From an uncultured Candidatus Saccharibacteria bacterium (GTDB lineage: Bacteria; Patescibacteriota; Saccharimonadia; Saccharimonadales; EFPC-124), in contig CAYOML010000001.1 of the NCBI GenBank assembly GCA_964405095.1, forward strand, positions 23,311 to 87,310: a DNA stretch of 64,000 nucleotides, given 5' to 3'. Of this stretch, positions 48,655-54,326 are shown piece by piece (the stretch's first letter is position 1; every line of letters starts with the position of its first letter). The notes under the pieces are model-generated. The model saw nothing but the letters and a program-made list of their open reading frames with translations. It searched no databases and was not told the origin of the DNA. The position numbers were made by a program, and so were the translations under genes.

Positions 48655-49752
48655 ATGGTACTGCAAAAAGATAGCCGCTGGACGCGCATGAGTCTGTGGG
48701 TCGAAAACCACAATAGGCTTTCGGTACTGTTGCTTGTAGGTACGTTAGTCGTGGCAGCCGGTGTGGTTGGTGCGGCCTATTTTTATGCTCAACCGACAAC
48801 TGAGGTCGCTGATCAAGTCGCCCAGAAAAAAACTGCCAATAAAAAACAAACCGAGACTGTCACGAAATACTATTCGCCACTTACTGGGGTAGAAGTAGCC
48901 GATCAAGCCGCCACCAAAAGGCAAGTGACAGCCGTAATGATCGAGAACAGCCAAACTGCTCGCCCGCAATCTGGTATCAAGCCGGCTGGCATTATTTACG
49001 AAGCTATCGCCGAAGGTGGCATCACGCGCTTTTTGACTCTGCACCAAGAGGACCGGCCAGGCCTCATTGGCCCAGTACGCAGCCTGCGACCATATTATAT
49101 AGCTTGGTTGGCACCGTTTGACGCCTCGGTTGCGCATGTCGGCGGCAGCGCTAATGCTCTTAAAGAAATTCGTAATGGCAGTTATAAAGATATCGACCAA
49201 TTCTTTAACGGCAGCTATTTCTGGCGGGCAAAAGACCGAGCCGCACCACACAATGTTTACACCAGCTTCGATAAACTCGACGCCCTAAACCAAAAGAAAG
49301 GCTATGTCAGCAGCGACTTTACGGCTTTCCCGCGTAAGCTAGATAGCCCGGCCACCAAACCAACAGCCAAAGCGATTAACGTGACAGTCTCTGGGCCACT
49401 ATATAACAGCGCCTACGCCTTCGACACTACGACCGATAGCTATCTGCGCAGCGAAGGTGGTGTGGCGCATAACGACAGAGAGGCTGGGCGGATGAACCCC
49501 AAAGTTGTAATAGTCATAAAAGTCCCCACCCAAAAAGGGTATGAGGACGGCTACAGAGAACAGATGACTACAGCCGGTTTTAACACAGCCTACATTTTTC
49601 AGGACGGCATAGTGATCCAGGGGTTTTGGCGTAAGAGCGGCACAAAATCGCAAATTCAGTTTTACGACCATGCCGCCCGCCCGATTGCGCTTAATGCAGG
49701 CCAGACTTGGATTACCGTTGTTGCGCCAGAGAAAGGTGTGACGTGGCAATAA
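48655..49752 (+). CDS. hypothetical secreted/membrane-anchored protein (possibly DUF3048/YerB-like)
   Basis: N-terminal TM; overall resemblance to YerB-type lipoproteins; low certainty. Confidence 0.4.
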   Translation: MVLQKDSRWTRMSLWVENHNRLSVLLLVGTLVVAAGVVGAAYFYAQPTTEVADQVAQKKTANKKQTETVTKYYSPLTGVEVADQAATKRQVTAVMIENSQTARPQSGIKPAGIIYEAIAEGGITRFLTLHQEDRPGLIGPVRSLRPYYIAWLAPFDASVAHVGGSANALKEIRNGSYKDIDQFFNGSYFWRAKDRAAPHNVYTSFDKLDALNQKKGYVSSDFTAFPRKLDSPATKPTAKAINVTVSGPLYNSAYAFDTTTDSYLRSEGGVAHNDREAGRMNPKVVIVIKVPTQKGYEDGYREQMTTAGFNTAYIFQDGIVIQGFWRKSGTKSQIQFYDHAARPIALNAGQTWITVVAPEKGVTWQ

Positions 49753-51281
49753 AAATCCACGAATTTTTTGACCACTACAAGCGCGAGACTATCGCGCTGT
49801 TCGTGCTAGCCCAAATGTTTAGTGTGGTGATCGGTGGCCTGGGGGGATGGTTGGGTTGGCAGGTCTTATATCTACAGCCAACTGCCGCTTTCATATTTGC
49901 TGTGCTAATTATGTCTATCAGCAACATTCTTATTTCTTTACTAATGTTTAAAACGGCCAGTGCGCCGCTCAAAGTTATGTCACAAGCTGTGGCACATGTT
50001 TCAAAAGACCCGTTTGTAACGCCACCACCAGACATTACTAAACCACATTACGCATATTCTGGGCTTAAAGACATGGTCCAAACAATTTACGAATTGGCTA
50101 TTGCCGCCCACCCGGCTAGTGAAGGTGGTGCGCCAACCCCTAATCAACCGCGGGCTGAGTTTTTTCAACATATCGCCGATAGTATGCCGTGCGGGGTGAT
50201 TGCCCTAAATGCTGACAATAAAGTTGTCTACGCCAACCAATTAGCGCCAATCAGCTCCGACCCAGACGGCAATTCAGACATTAAGCTGATATTCGAACAA
50301 AACGATGATCTGACAAAATGGTTAGCTGACTGTCAAGCCAATAAAGTCCACGATACACACCTATGGCTGCGGGTTTCGGACAAATTACCTAGCGAACAGG
50401 ACCGCAGAATATTCGACGTGGCTGGCCGCTATCAGAAAAATGACGGCGGGGGTATCGAAGTTGTTCTGCTTGCTTTCGACCGCACATCTGCCTACGCCCC
50501 CGACCAAGACGACATGGACTTTATTGCCCTGGCCGCCCACGAGCTGCGAGGGCCAATCACCGTCATCCGCGGATACCTGGACGTCTTGAACCAAGAAGTC
50601 GGCGAGAAACTTGATGCCGAACAACACATGCTAATGGATCGCCTGCAAGTATCAGCCGAGCGGCTGTCGGGCTACGTCAGCAACATCTTAAATGTATCGC
50701 GTTACGACCGCCGGCGCTTTAACATGCACCTGCACGAAGATAATCTGCTAGGCATCCTGCAAAACCTGGTTGCCGATCTTAACCTGCGGGCCCAAACTCA
50801 AAACCGAACTTTATCATTCAAAGTTCCAGATAACCTGCCGACCATCGCCGCCGACAGGACCGGTATTAGTGAAGTCATCATCAATCTAATCGACAACGCC
50901 ATTAAATATAGCCACGAGGGCGGCAATATTATCCTTAGTGCCGCCGTCAAAGATAGCGACTTTGTTGAAGTAACCATAACTGACGCAGGTATTGGTATCC
51001 CCGACAGTATTGTTGGTAATCTGTTTAATAAATTCTATCGTTCGCATCGCTCGCGCGAGAGTGTTGGTGGCACTGGCTTGGGTCTTTATATCTGTAAAGC
51101 AGTTATCGAAGGTCACGGCGGCACAATCTGGGTCCGTTCGCAAGAAGGCAAGGGAACAACCTTTGGCTTCACCGTACCAGTATACGCAACAGTTGCGCAG
51201 AAGATCGCAAGCGGTGATAATAAAGACATCACCGAGCGAAGCGAAGGCTGGATAAAAAATCACGCAATGTACCGGAGGTAA
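49707..51281 (+). CDS. sensor histidine kinase
   Basis: N-terminal TMs; HisKA H-box ALAAHELRGPIT; HATPase_c N, G1 and G2 boxes (LIDNAIKYS, DAGIGIP, GTGLGLYICK). Confidence 0.8.
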   Translation: MDYRCCARERCDVAIKIHEFFDHYKRETIALFVLAQMFSVVIGGLGGWLGWQVLYLQPTAAFIFAVLIMSISNILISLLMFKTASAPLKVMSQAVAHVSKDPFVTPPPDITKPHYAYSGLKDMVQTIYELAIAAHPASEGGAPTPNQPRAEFFQHIADSMPCGVIALNADNKVVYANQLAPISSDPDGNSDIKLIFEQNDDLTKWLADCQANKVHDTHLWLRVSDKLPSEQDRRIFDVAGRYQKNDGGGIEVVLLAFDRTSAYAPDQDDMDFIALAAHELRGPITVIRGYLDVLNQEVGEKLDAEQHMLMDRLQVSAERLSGYVSNILNVSRYDRRRFNMHLHEDNLLGILQNLVADLNLRAQTQNRTLSFKVPDNLPTIAADRTGISEVIINLIDNAIKYSHEGGNIILSAAVKDSDFVEVTITDAGIGIPDSIVGNLFNKFYRSHRSRESVGGTGLGLYICKAVIEGHGGTIWVRSQEGKGTTFGFTVPVYATVAQKIASGDNKDITERSEGWIKNHAMYRR

Positions 51282-51284
51282 ACT

Positions 51285-51668
51285 GTGGCGGCAATCAAGA
51301 CAATTCTGTGTATCGAAGACGATCTGTTCATTGGCGAAATGTACGTCCGCAGCCTGCGTAAGGCCGGCTACGATGTCACCTTAGTGGCCAGCGGTGAAGA
51401 GGGCGAAAAAGCCGCTTTAGCCAAGCCCTACGACTTAATTTTGTTGGATATTTTGCTGCCCGAAAAACACGGCACCGAGATTCTGCAAACTCTTCGCGGT
51501 GACAAGGATTTGGTACCGAGCTCGCGCATATTGGTTATGACCAACTTCAGCCAAGACGACGAATCACGTATTGCCATGCAAAGCAAAGCCGATGGTTATC
51601 TTATCAAGGCCGACATCACCCCGCGTAAACTCATAGAAATTGTTGGCTCTTTGCAAACCGTCTCATAG
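51285..51668 (+). CDS. single-domain response regulator (receiver only, CheY-like)
   Basis: acidic pocket DD, phospho-acceptor D in ILLDILLP, T and K in LVMTNF / YLIKA; no output domain. Confidence 0.8.
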   Translation: MAAIKTILCIEDDLFIGEMYVRSLRKAGYDVTLVASGEEGEKAALAKPYDLILLDILLPEKHGTEILQTLRGDKDLVPSSRILVMTNFSQDDESRIAMQSKADGYLIKADITPRKLIEIVGSLQTVS

Positions 51669-51720
51669 TTATAAAGTTAACCAAATTGCGCATACAAACC
51701 TAATGTGTTTAGGTATTAGT

Positions 51721-52392
51721 ATGTATGTGTCTAGCAGCCAGCTATACATTGGCTCCCACCGCTACGAGAATGCCCCTAGAAACACTGCCAGCCTGGGCGT
51801 AGAGGACTTTGATGCTATGCGCCAAGAGTCGACTGCCAGAATGATGCTTAGAACCATTTTGCAAGAGATTGCCGAACAGAGACAGGAAGCACCAATAGCC
51901 CCACAAACTTCACCCAAGGGCCTAAGAGTTGCTGAAATAGTAAGACTTGGGATCGAAGCGAGTAGCGACTATGCCGAACATATAGCCAGGCGTCTAGGCA
52001 GATTTGTGGTGCGACACCGTGTAGGTTTAGCTGGCTTAGTTACGGCCACCACAGGGTTAGTGGCCATCGGCATGGCAGTAAAAAGTGCTTTCGATATAAA
52101 TGTATATGCCACTTATCAAGAATTATTTAACACTGTGACCAAGCAAGATGCTGTCAGCCTGGCAGCCCAGCGCAATATAGGGCTAGAAGTGACAGTTGGT
52201 AGCATAAACGCCGCCGTTAGTGTCCCAGCCGGGCTTGGGTACCTAACATTACGTAATGCCAGAGATGAAGCTATTATGCAGCCTAACAGTGTTGGCACCA
52301 GTGCACAAAATGGATACGAAGATGATGAACCCGGCGGCTTAGCCATATTGAGCGCCATCATGGACGACCAGACTTACGGCTCTGACTCATAG
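51721..52392 (+). CDS. hypothetical protein
   Basis: ORF track (51640..52392); an internal Met start is more plausible; no motif. Confidence 0.3.
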   Translation: MYVSSSQLYIGSHRYENAPRNTASLGVEDFDAMRQESTARMMLRTILQEIAEQRQEAPIAPQTSPKGLRVAEIVRLGIEASSDYAEHIARRLGRFVVRHRVGLAGLVTATTGLVAIGMAVKSAFDINVYATYQELFNTVTKQDAVSLAAQRNIGLEVTVGSINAAVSVPAGLGYLTLRNARDEAIMQPNSVGTSAQNGYEDDEPGGLAILSAIMDDQTYGSDS

Positions 52393-52445
52393 ACAACCCG
52401 CCTCTGTTATGCTACGATAGCCTGCGTATTATTTCATATTTTCGT

Positions 52446-52520
52446 GGCCCCATCGTCTAGTGGTTAGGACACCAGGTTCTCATCCTGACAACCGGAGTTC
52501 GACTCTCCGTGGGGTCACCA
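52446..52520 (+). tRNA. tRNA-Glu (anticodon CTC)
   Basis: GGCCCCATCGTCTAGTGGTTAGGACACCAGGTTCTCATCCTGACAACCGGAGTTCGACTCTCCGTGGGGTCACCA; anticodon loop TTCTCAT; T-arm CGGAG-TTCGACT-CTCCG; CCA encoded. Confidence 0.85.
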
Positions 52521-52609
52521 GAACAGACAATGGCAAGTGAAGTCTCAAGGTTATGAGGCTTTTTCTTGTTTACCCAGTTAGTTTGACAGGAGATTTATGT
52601 TGGGGAAAG

Positions 52610-54223
52610 TTACAATGTATGTTCCAACAATAAGCGGTTGAAACGTCTCAATAGACTACGGATTCTGCCAACTCTTTCTGGGACATAGGAGATAACAGGC
52701 TGGTGCTCAGGAGTATCATGCTGGTCATAGTCATCCCTCTGTCTAATGGGACGAGTGAATCTGCGAATGCGATTGATGCCATTAGTCATATTTACAACTG
52801 GCTTGCCGTCTGGGTCGAAGTCTACACTAATGGACCTCAGGGCCATGCTGCCCGTTGCGCCAAGGACTTCACGATCTGCAACCTCAGAGAGAATGGCAGC
52901 AAAACCAGTATCACTCTGTCCGGTCGAACAGGCATCGATGGCAAACACCGAGTCCTGACGGCTAACGCTTGCAGCAAGCTCTCCGGCCCATTGTCTGATA
53001 TCCTCGCTTGTGAGATAACCTTCTCCTAAGGAGACATCGCCCCCATAGCCATGCCCATCGAAGACTATGGCTGAAGCCAAAGCATGTCGAGCCAACTTAG
53101 CCTGGCGTGCCCTAACCTTTAGTTCTGCCTTACGCCTGACCTCAATAACTGTCATACCAACACCTTGGCTGCGAAGTTGCTGACGAAGTCGCTCCAGCTT
53201 TGGTATACTCCCCCTGGTCGCGGACCCATTGGAATCATATGTAGCAGATAATAGATAAATGTGGCGATCGTAATGAGTAAAGCGCTCCCGGTATTGGTCT
53301 AATAGCATGCTCTCTGGGAAACGTGCAAAGTTACGGATACCAAATGACCTGTAAAGTGTACGGCAGATCCCGGGGTGTTGATTCTCAAATTTTAGCATGC
53401 GCCTAACGCACTCAACTTGATATTCGTCCTGGTCCCAATAACCTGCTTTAGAGCCATAACCCCAACGCCATGCACTGCTAATCTCACCATCTGAAGGTAG
53501 GCCTAACAGTTCACAGATCAGATTGACACCATTAGTGCGTGCAGCCAAGTTTTTTATTACCCGAACTTTAAAGCTATCGGGATCCTGTTGGTCATTAAGC
53601 TCCACAAGTAACGCTTTTAGCTGGGGGTGTGCAGCAGCATCTGTATCGGCAATAATACTACCCGCACCTCGGATATAACTTTCACTATAGGTGTTAGCAT
53701 AATAGATGTCGCCAACCTTATTCTCTGCATTTCCTAAAATATTAGGTAGATTTGCCAGGATATGATCTTTGACCCGCTGATCTATAGATGCGGACCCTGA
53801 CTGAGATACGGCAACTAATAGAAGATCTGCTATGTGTATAGACCTATTAGAACCAGGCTCAGTTTCAGCTATATCCAATAATTTGTCGGCCAGGCCATCC
53901 TGAAACAGATGATCGGCACTGTCCTCGGCTACATTCTCAGCACTCCACGAAGTTGACCATGATTCATCTAGAGTAGAGAATGCTCCGAGCCGAACGAAAC
54001 TATCTATCATACCGATAGTACTATCCACATGGGCTCTCTGAGACAGCGACGCTGCAATGACGGGGTCTGACCAGAAACCCTCCATTGAGGGTCTGTCATA
54101 TGGATACTCAGCAAGCTCATCAAGTATATGACTAGCACTGTCAAGGACTTGATTATACTGCTGTAAGTCAAAACCTTGCCTAGTTTCGAAACCAGACACC
54201 TCGGCTCCACGTATATGAGTCAT
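52610..54223 (-). CDS. large hypothetical protein with a C-terminal caspase-like (CHAT / peptidase C14-like) domain
   Basis: His-Cys dyad in canonical context and spacing: IVFDGHGYGG (His391) and FAIDACSTGQS (Cys432), 41 residues apart; N-terminal roughly 310 aa unassigned. Confidence 0.5.
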   Translation of the reverse strand: MTHIRGAEVSGFETRQGFDLQQYNQVLDSASHILDELAEYPYDRPSMEGFWSDPVIAASLSQRAHVDSTIGMIDSFVRLGAFSTLDESWSTSWSAENVAEDSADHLFQDGLADKLLDIAETEPGSNRSIHIADLLLVAVSQSGSASIDQRVKDHILANLPNILGNAENKVGDIYYANTYSESYIRGAGSIIADTDAAAHPQLKALLVELNDQQDPDSFKVRVIKNLAARTNGVNLICELLGLPSDGEISSAWRWGYGSKAGYWDQDEYQVECVRRMLKFENQHPGICRTLYRSFGIRNFARFPESMLLDQYRERFTHYDRHIYLLSATYDSNGSATRGSIPKLERLRQQLRSQGVGMTVIEVRRKAELKVRARQAKLARHALASAIVFDGHGYGGDVSLGEGYLTSEDIRQWAGELAASVSRQDSVFAIDACSTGQSDTGFAAILSEVADREVLGATGSMALRSISVDFDPDGKPVVNMTNGINRIRRFTRPIRQRDDYDQHDTPEHQPVISYVPERVGRIRSLLRRFNRLLLEHTL

Positions 54224-54326
54224 AGCGTTAGATCATACCATATACAAGACGATAAAGCAAGTATAGAATCTTAGTTTATTCTTCTAGATTTGGTGCAGAA
54301 ATTAATGTTTTTCTGCAATCAAGATT

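Follow-up and report, generated by a model that had tools for sequence, protein, structure and literature searches.

The stretch of DNA analyzed here (the window) comprises 64,000 nucleotides of a contig (CAYOML010000001.1) from an uncultured Candidatus Saccharibacteria bacterium. It contains a minus-strand gene that codes for a protein of 537 amino acids (aa) and lies next to a tRNA-Glu gene. The protein consists of a helical N-terminal region and a conserved C-terminal domain with an invariant histidine and cysteine. It is likely to be a stand-alone, probably cytoplasmic, single-chain Cys-His endopeptidase of caspase (clan CD) fold, the peptidase activity being predicted from fold and catalytic pair. 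The original prediction, which was made from the letters of the window, described a minus-strand open reading frame (ORF) of 537 aa with two caspase-like motifs adjoining tRNA-Glu, and both its coordinates and its letters are as described. The gene, the parts of its product and the adjoining tRNA are as follows.

52610..54223, minus strand: complete coding sequence of a two-domain protein (537 aa plus stop codon at 52610-52612), with an ATG start, from the six-frame ORF list.
53474..54223, minus strand: N-terminal region, residues 1-250, modelled with AlphaFold (AF2) and compared with Foldseek as an all-helical armadillo/HEAT-like solenoid; proposed binding module.
53276..53473, minus strand: three-helix prelude to the catalytic domain, residues 251-316, with the signature LE..PG....L...FGIRNFxR(Y/F)P that includes Glu280, Gly285 and Arg301.
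52742..53275, minus strand: alpha/beta core of the predicted caspase-fold (clan CD-like) domain, residues 317-494, from the AF2 model and Foldseek.
53051..53053, minus strand: codon of His391, the predicted general base, in the motif DGHG just after strand β3; invariant, codon checked.
52928..52930, minus strand: codon of Cys432, the predicted nucleophile, in the motif DACSTG just after strand β4; invariant, codon checked.
52613..52741, minus strand: C-terminal tail with a predicted terminal helix, residues 495-537, modelled with a predicted local distance difference test (pLDDT) score of 51-79 and not conserved in the wider family.
52446-52520, plus strand: tRNA-Glu with anticodon CTC, on which ARAGORN and Rfam agree.

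The two motifs read IVFDGHGYGGD (residues 386-396) and FAIDACSTGQS (residues 427-437), which places His391 and Cys432 41 residues apart. A loose version of this pair, defined as a hydrophobic strand followed by HG and, after 30-55 residues, a hydrophobic strand followed by [AGS]C, is produced by 29 of 20000 shuffled versions of the protein. The stronger proof that the pair is not due to chance is its conservation across homologues. Both residues are kept in all 17 full-length relatives, at identities down to 18%, and each is present in 146 of 146 domains (100%) extracted from the wider family. In an alignment of 149 rows made with MAFFT, the invariant columns are those of the histidine and the cysteine only. 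Other positions of the 146 domains are conserved to a lesser extent, i.e., Glu361 (99%), Arg301 (98%), Gly285 (98%), Glu280 (97%), Gly392 (95%) and Asp330 (92%). The residues that had been picked out as a catalytic dyad are thus the invariant pair of a family.

The conserved C-terminal domain spans residues ~250-495. It had been thought to start after residue 310, but its beginning lies near residue 250, as the helical prelude is part of it. The structure of residues 250-537 was modelled with AF2 using the 149-row alignment as input, which resulted in a mean pLDDT of 90.1 and a predicted template modelling score (pTM) of 0.82; a model of the protein made from 3 sequences had been usable in its N-terminal half and poor in its C-terminal half. 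The prelude consists of three helices at model residues 16-33, 37-45 and 55-63 (pLDDT ~97). These are followed by the order β1-α1-β2-α2-β3, three short strands, and α3-β4-α4-β5-β6-β7-β8. In model numbering, β3 covers residues 134-140, the short strands cover 142-144, 147-149 and 154-156, α3 covers 157-170 and β4 covers 172-181. The histidine (142) is located two residues past β3 and the cysteine (183) two residues past β4. In caspases, the catalytic histidine lies on the loop after β3, the cysteine on the loop after β4, and a small three-stranded sheet is inserted between β3 and α3 (PMC4357240). The domain model agrees with all three of these points.

Structural comparison of the domain model with the PDB using Foldseek points in the same direction. 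The top 34 matches are all caspases (caspases-9, -3, -7, -6 and -11), SAVED-CHAT or legumain, with match probabilities of 0.92-1.0. In the viral structure database BFVD, matching giant-virus proteins are annotated as caspase, caspase domain, Peptidase C14 or metacaspase-like. Besides these, two phage proteins outscore the giant-virus caspases in the same search. The best BFVD match is A0A8S5P2H5, a phage 'minor capsid protein (fragment)' (E = 6e-5), and the other is A0A8S5MXG5, an uncharacterised Myoviridae protein (E = 1.4e-4). At the level of sequence profiles, hhalign places His391 opposite His121 and Cys432 opposite Cys163 of human caspase-3, although with a probability of 11% (P = 0.0028) this is a weak match, made with a hand-entered caspase-3 sequence. 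In that same low-scoring alignment, VFDGHG stands opposite LLSHGEE and IDACSTG opposite IIQACRG. Altogether, the C-terminal part is supported by its predicted structure as a domain of the caspase (clan CD-like) fold, in which helices on both faces sandwich a central sheet of mostly parallel strands.

The curated domain models give a different result. The original prediction had proposed a clan CD dyad in a protease of the Peptidase_C14 or CHAT type. The caspase fold and the invariant pair are borne out by the domain model, Foldseek and hhalign, but membership of Peptidase_C14 or CHAT is not, as neither hidden Markov model (HMM) matches the window protein. For PF00656 (Peptidase_C14), the window protein has no hit even at E <= 10, and only one of 76 sampled family members matches (E = 0.0039). 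For PF12770 (CHAT), there is no match in the window protein or in any of the 76. The single Pfam signal of the window protein is DUF4347 (PF14252), with 17.9 bits (E = 0.0028), which is below the gathering score of 24.6. This match aligns residues 340-452 with profile positions 8-120 of 164, running from helix α1 to past the cysteine. The family consensus scores 20.2 bits, a homologue at locus L006 23.8 bits, and homologue P0029, named DUF4347 by JGI, reaches 33.6 bits and passes the threshold. At E <= 0.01, DUF4347 hits are found in 5 of the 76 sampled members and are absent from the other 71. NCBIfam models give only noise for the window protein, and sequence searches of the PDB return no meaningful match. 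Seeming fusions of the domain with Pyocin_S, SLOG, Emfourin or Ig among the scanned members all originate from P0105, a repetitive false positive of 1962 aa, and were discarded. The family would thus be a distant branch of the DUF4347 superfamily that existing models largely miss, and it is linked to this superfamily transitively via P0029 rather than directly. In the literature searched, DUF4347 is mentioned in passing only, never in a title or abstract, and nothing relevant was found on caspase-like proteins of Patescibacteria or on cysteine proteases or effectors of Saccharibacteria.

To determine the size of the family, 1.84 billion cluster representatives (clustered at 50% identity) were scanned with HMMER, with a small alignment as query. 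At E <= 1e-3, 755 representatives match. Thirteen of these are full-length matches at E < 1e-30, including P0001 and P0002 from the query alignment, and the remaining representatives match only query residues ~230-490. The outcome of homologue retrieval depends on the query: the 149-row alignment, seemingly led by its first sequence, returned 4 proteins, an 8-row alignment returned 15, and a word-indexed search gave just the identical protein and one homologue with 43% identity. The closest homologue is P0002 (43% identity). A Logan assembly contains a protein identical to the window protein, flanked by the genes that also flank it here; the same cluster also has a 537-aa NCBI member, and a 529-aa form was likewise found with the same neighbours. 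A metagenome scan by way of the neighbouring M20 peptidase retrieved just one unrelated high-GC contig. Domain statistics were taken from the best 150 of the 755 representatives, from which the 146 domains were extracted. In these, the domain lies at the very end of the chain, with 8 residues after it and an N-terminal region of 269 aa before it (medians). No N-terminal signal or membrane segment is present in the window protein or among these 150. Because such segments are absent, the protein probably resides inside the cell.

Every family member that was looked up carries the name 'hypothetical protein' or DUF4347, and the named sources number only about 7. Hypothetical proteins P0006 and P0045 belong to Candidatus Saccharimonadales, as does locus L005 according to its title; P0047 is a hypothetical protein of Candidatus Paceibacterota, L007 is part of a metagenome-assembled genome (MAG) of Patescibacteria, and P0162 is a protein of a Nanobdellota (DPANN) archaeon. 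The named members thus belong mostly to the Candidate Phyla Radiation (CPR)/Patescibacteria, and the nearest named relatives of the window protein are from Candidatus Saccharimonadales. With few exceptions, the sources known so far are symbiotic bacteria and archaea of ultra-small size. Three homologues deserve separate mention. The one at L015 4187-6487, from a Nanobdellota archaeon (GCA_051819665.1), keeps the motifs FxIxNFxRY, GAHG and SCLTG. At L006 2349-3647, the homologue that scores 23.8 bits against DUF4347 (26% identity) is found in a MAG labelled 'uncultured Pseudomonadales', which points either to wrong binning or to an occurrence of the family beyond the CPR. Lastly, P0016 at L013 8001-11054 (1017 aa) contains two tandem caspase-fold domains, with E-values of 1.7e-53 and 1.7e-29.

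The N-terminal half was originally described as a region of no recognisable motif that could be a sensor or effector-recognition module. In the AF2 model from 3 sequences, residues ~20-250 are entirely made up of stacked helices, with pLDDT mostly 65-92, so that a helical solenoid with weak armadillo-repeat matches takes the place of the featureless region. The Foldseek PDB matches of this model are beta-catenin, designed armadillo (ARM) proteins, SPIN90 ARM and axonemal ARM proteins, all at E >= 3.6e-3 and template modelling scores (TM-scores) of 0.2-0.3. In sequence, this part varies widely. When compared by BLAST, the N-terminal regions of the family members sampled form 79 clusters, that of the window protein having 13 members including itself. 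With hhalign, this cluster appears remotely related to three other clusters (97, 89 and 64% probability) and unrelated to three more. The N-terminal part therefore looks like a fast-diverging helical module that is partly replaced in other clades. A role as sensor or effector-recognition module is plausible.

Compared to known systems, the protein shares its fold with several proteases but is assigned to none of their families. Caspases, metacaspases and orthocaspases (MEROPS C14, PF00656) agree with it in fold and in the positions and order of histidine and cysteine, with a spacing of 41 residues here against 42 in caspase-3. Unlike caspases, the window protein has no inter-subunit linker region in the model, and its C-terminal strands would be arranged differently. 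CHAT proteases, such as SAVED-CHAT of CBASS-like systems, TPR-CHAT/Csx29 of type III-E CRISPR systems and HetF, likewise have a His...Cys pair on a caspase fold. One of the best structural matches is SAVED-CHAT (8tl0_D), whose root-mean-square deviation (4.6 Å over 165 columns) is smaller than that of any other top hit. TPR-CHAT consists of a helical-repeat N-terminal part and then a C-terminal protease, a layout paralleled by the window protein. In contrast to the CHAT systems, the window protein and the 76 sampled members have no PF12770 hit, and the 11 genomic contexts hold no SAVED, CRISPR or cyclic-nucleotide partner genes. In separase (MEROPS C50), a large helical solenoid lies N-terminal to a caspase-like catalytic domain and regulates it. 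Separase is eukaryotic and far larger, and it is neither a sequence match nor a top structural match, so the likeness is an analogy of architecture only. Of all curated models, only DUF4347 gives any match, and P0029 passes its threshold. The family of the window protein differs from it by an extra conserved three-helix prelude (FGIRNFxRYP) and by the position of the domain at the C-terminus of ~500-aa proteins. As judged from these sequences, the family would be excluded by the C14 and CHAT models and set apart by being unmodelled, by its own helical prelude, by its C-terminal position and by its distribution in CPR and DPANN.

By analogy with these proteases, a working mechanism can be proposed. 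Cys432, on the loop after β4, would attack the peptide bond of the substrate, and His391, on the loop after β3, would serve as general base/acid; caspases, legumain and CHAT proteases work in this way. The S1 pocket may be shaped, or the active-site loops kept in place, by conserved acidic and basic residues near the core, namely Asp330 (after β1), Glu361 (after β2), and Arg301 and Glu280 (both in the prelude). Substrates or a regulator may be recruited by the armadillo-like solenoid at the N-terminus, which may also curb the protease, much like the helical N-terminal regions of separase and TPR-CHAT.

Several points weigh against the interpretation as a caspase-fold endopeptidase. The E-values of the Foldseek PDB matches are modest (5e-4 to 7e-3) and the TM-scores are low (0.3-0.45). 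The caspase-3 alignment is weak and was made with a hand-entered sequence, and a search with the sequence profile against all PDB chains yields designed-protein noise and no clan CD protein. Past β5, the strands are unlike those of caspases, as there is no clear α5 and β7 and β8 are extra. The N-terminal model was built from 3 sequences only, and its armadillo matches are weak. Finally, the peptidase activity of both the family and the DUF4347 members is putative.

Genomic context is relevant as prokaryotic caspase-like proteases recur in defence systems, and an abortive-infection or programmed-cell-death role had been suggested for this gene. Eleven distinct contexts were read, i.e., the window and 10 homologue loci, in which the neighbours are arranged as follows.

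Window: M20 peptidase, gene, tRNA-Glu.
L001: MazG, gene, ABC transporter.
L005: LepA, gene.
L006: S51 peptidase, gene.
L007: RNase J, gene, FtsK.
L009: SIMPL, gene, methyltransferase.
L011: HU, gene, T4SS-like ATPase.
L013: glutamate dehydrogenase, gene.
L015: RNase P p30, gene.
L016: unknown genes, gene, HD hydrolase.
L018: rpsI, gene, GrpE.

All 11 contexts are housekeeping contexts, and the protease gene is present as a single copy per locus. The window itself is an ordinary chromosome segment with GluRS, ArgRS, ATP synthase, Der, an AddA-like helicase, DUF3048 and PEGA proteins. Across the 11 contexts there is no recurrent neighbour and no defence, phage or mobile gene, nor is there a cyclic-nucleotide synthase, SAVED domain, CRISPR, gasdermin, NTPase or other known partner. 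PADLOC identifies 0 defence families, and a scan of viral contigs found no relative of the family. Nothing in these results points to an anti-phage defence gene or a recent import, and a caspase-like motif adjoining a tRNA is by itself no evidence of a defence island. The homologues elsewhere do not adjoin tRNA genes, except for the one at L006, which has a tRNA-Glu(TTC) 2 kb upstream. Two other kinds of genes were observed nearby. A Fic gene lies one gene from the archaeal homologue at L015, and another four genes from the homologue at L011. Histidine kinase/response-regulator genes occur within four genes of the protease gene in the window (49707-51668), in L001 (5115-6984) and in L011 (2258-3321). 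The kinases share just a generic 29-31% similarity over the catalytic core, and a link with the protease was set aside as probably a coincidence.

The gene had also been proposed to be horizontally acquired at the tRNA, on the grounds of a slightly AT-richer composition and rare codons. Compared to 40 ORFs of the window, its overall GC content is normal (0.475 against 0.492 +/- 0.024, z = -0.7), contrary to the presumed AT-richness. Its GC content at third codon positions (GC3) is the lowest of the 40 (0.419, z = -2.0), and its use of AGA and of AGG is in each case the second highest, which is in line with the rare AGA codons reported. There is no integrase among the neighbours of the gene and no repeat of the 3' end of tRNA-Glu in the window, with up to 3 mismatches allowed, as had already been noted. 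With these absences and a normal GC content, only GC3 and arginine codon use deviate, and the evidence for horizontal acquisition is weak; the deviation fits low expression as well as foreign origin. The tRNA-Glu(CTC) is convergent with the protease gene, with a gap of 89 bp past the stop codon, and has no evident functional or integrative link to it.

Upstream of the gene, a candidate promoter can be read from the sequence.

54232..54260, minus strand: candidate promoter with TTGCTT, a 17-nt spacer and a TG-extended TATGAT.

With 8 nt between the TATGAT -10 element and the ATG, and no Shine–Dalgarno sequence, the mRNA may be leaderless. A consensus promoter scan does not report this candidate, as its -35 element fits just 3 of 6 positions. 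On the other side of the tRNA lies a further ORF.

51640-52392, plus strand: ORF of 250 aa that overlaps the end of the response-regulator gene and stops 54 bp short of tRNA-Glu.

It has no Pfam match, and its putative product contains the hydrophobic stretch VGLAGLVTATTGLVAIGMAV. A 16-nt inverted repeat (52379-52394 / 54211-54226, complementary at 14 of 16 positions) flanks tRNA-Glu and the protease gene. It was not retained as a signal, since by our own estimate a search of 4.7 kb would turn up ~3 such pairs by chance.

Other roles have to be weighed against that of a stand-alone endopeptidase. The protein could be a single-gene anti-phage or abortive-infection protein, of which the N-terminal domain senses a phage cue and frees the protease, after which the cell is killed or arrested. 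This would fit the caspase fold with its intact catalytic pair, the structural likeness to SAVED-CHAT (a defence protease), a GC3 below that of all other window ORFs compared together with frequent AGA/AGG codons, and the hypervariability of the N-terminal regions, as 79 clusters are what would be expected of sensors in an arms race. Against this stand the PADLOC result, the absence of known partners from all 11 contexts, the lack of an integrase, mobile genes or a tRNA repeat, and the absence of members from viral contigs; the neighbours code for ribosomal proteins, LepA, RNase J, FtsK, GrpE, M20 peptidase and similar functions. Such a role is considered quite unlikely, and the suggestion of an abortive-infection function is not sustained. 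It is likewise unlikely that the protein is an effector of an episymbiont, delivered into or acting on a host cell (e.g., of Actinobacteria), with an N-terminal domain that targets differing host proteins. In favour of it, nearly all named members belong to episymbiotic lineages with reduced genomes (Saccharimonadales, Paceibacterota, Patescibacteria and a Nanobdellota archaeon), the combination of a conserved catalytic domain at the C-terminus with a rapidly evolving N-terminus is reminiscent of effectors and toxins, and the best BFVD match is a phage 'minor capsid protein (fragment)'. However, the taxonomic sample behind this is small (about 7 named sources), there is no signal peptide or membrane segment, and no small immunity-like gene adjoins the gene in a conserved way. 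Moreover, linkage to secretion or pilus genes is not consistent, as only a type IV secretion system (T4SS)-like ATPase gene adjoins one homologue and a T2SSE ATPase gene lies 2.5 kb from another. The variable N-terminus would be explained by a role in defence or as an effector, but neither has contextual support.

A self-processing module, in which the caspase-fold domain cuts its own chain, like the C80 domain of MARTX toxins, and so frees a functional N-terminal helical domain, is very improbable. The catalytic domain is always terminal, P0016 has two protease domains in one chain, and the relatives covered by DUF4347 presumably stand at the ends of very large proteins with many domains, as would suit a processing role. 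The stretch between the two domains shows no conserved cleavage motif, though, and the N-terminal regions are too diverse for one conserved cargo. The probability that is left falls to a cellular regulatory role or to a non-peptidase domain. The stand-alone caspase-fold endopeptidase remains the preferred interpretation. A broader, rather doubtful possibility is that the family is a toolkit specific to CPR and DPANN episymbionts, in which the fast-evolving solenoids would direct the protease to differing proteins, either for host manipulation or as a one-protein sensor-executioner immunity unrelated to the known CHAT and caspase defence systems.

Caspase-fold proteases govern how cells die, differentiate and defend themselves, both in eukaryotes and cyanobacteria and in several bacterial defence systems. 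To a specialist, the fold and the catalytic pair of the window protein will be unsurprising. What offers a concrete and testable lead is the existence of a family of 755 clusters in ultra-small symbionts, a sizeable caspase-fold family with an intact pair that escapes the curated models. Its named members occur in CPR bacteria and a DPANN archaeon, organisms whose host interaction is poorly understood and that have many unknown genes. If active, these proteins would be tractable candidates for regulated proteolysis in ultra-small symbionts, accessible through Cys/His mutants and activity-based probes, and they would provide the first functional handle on DUF4347.

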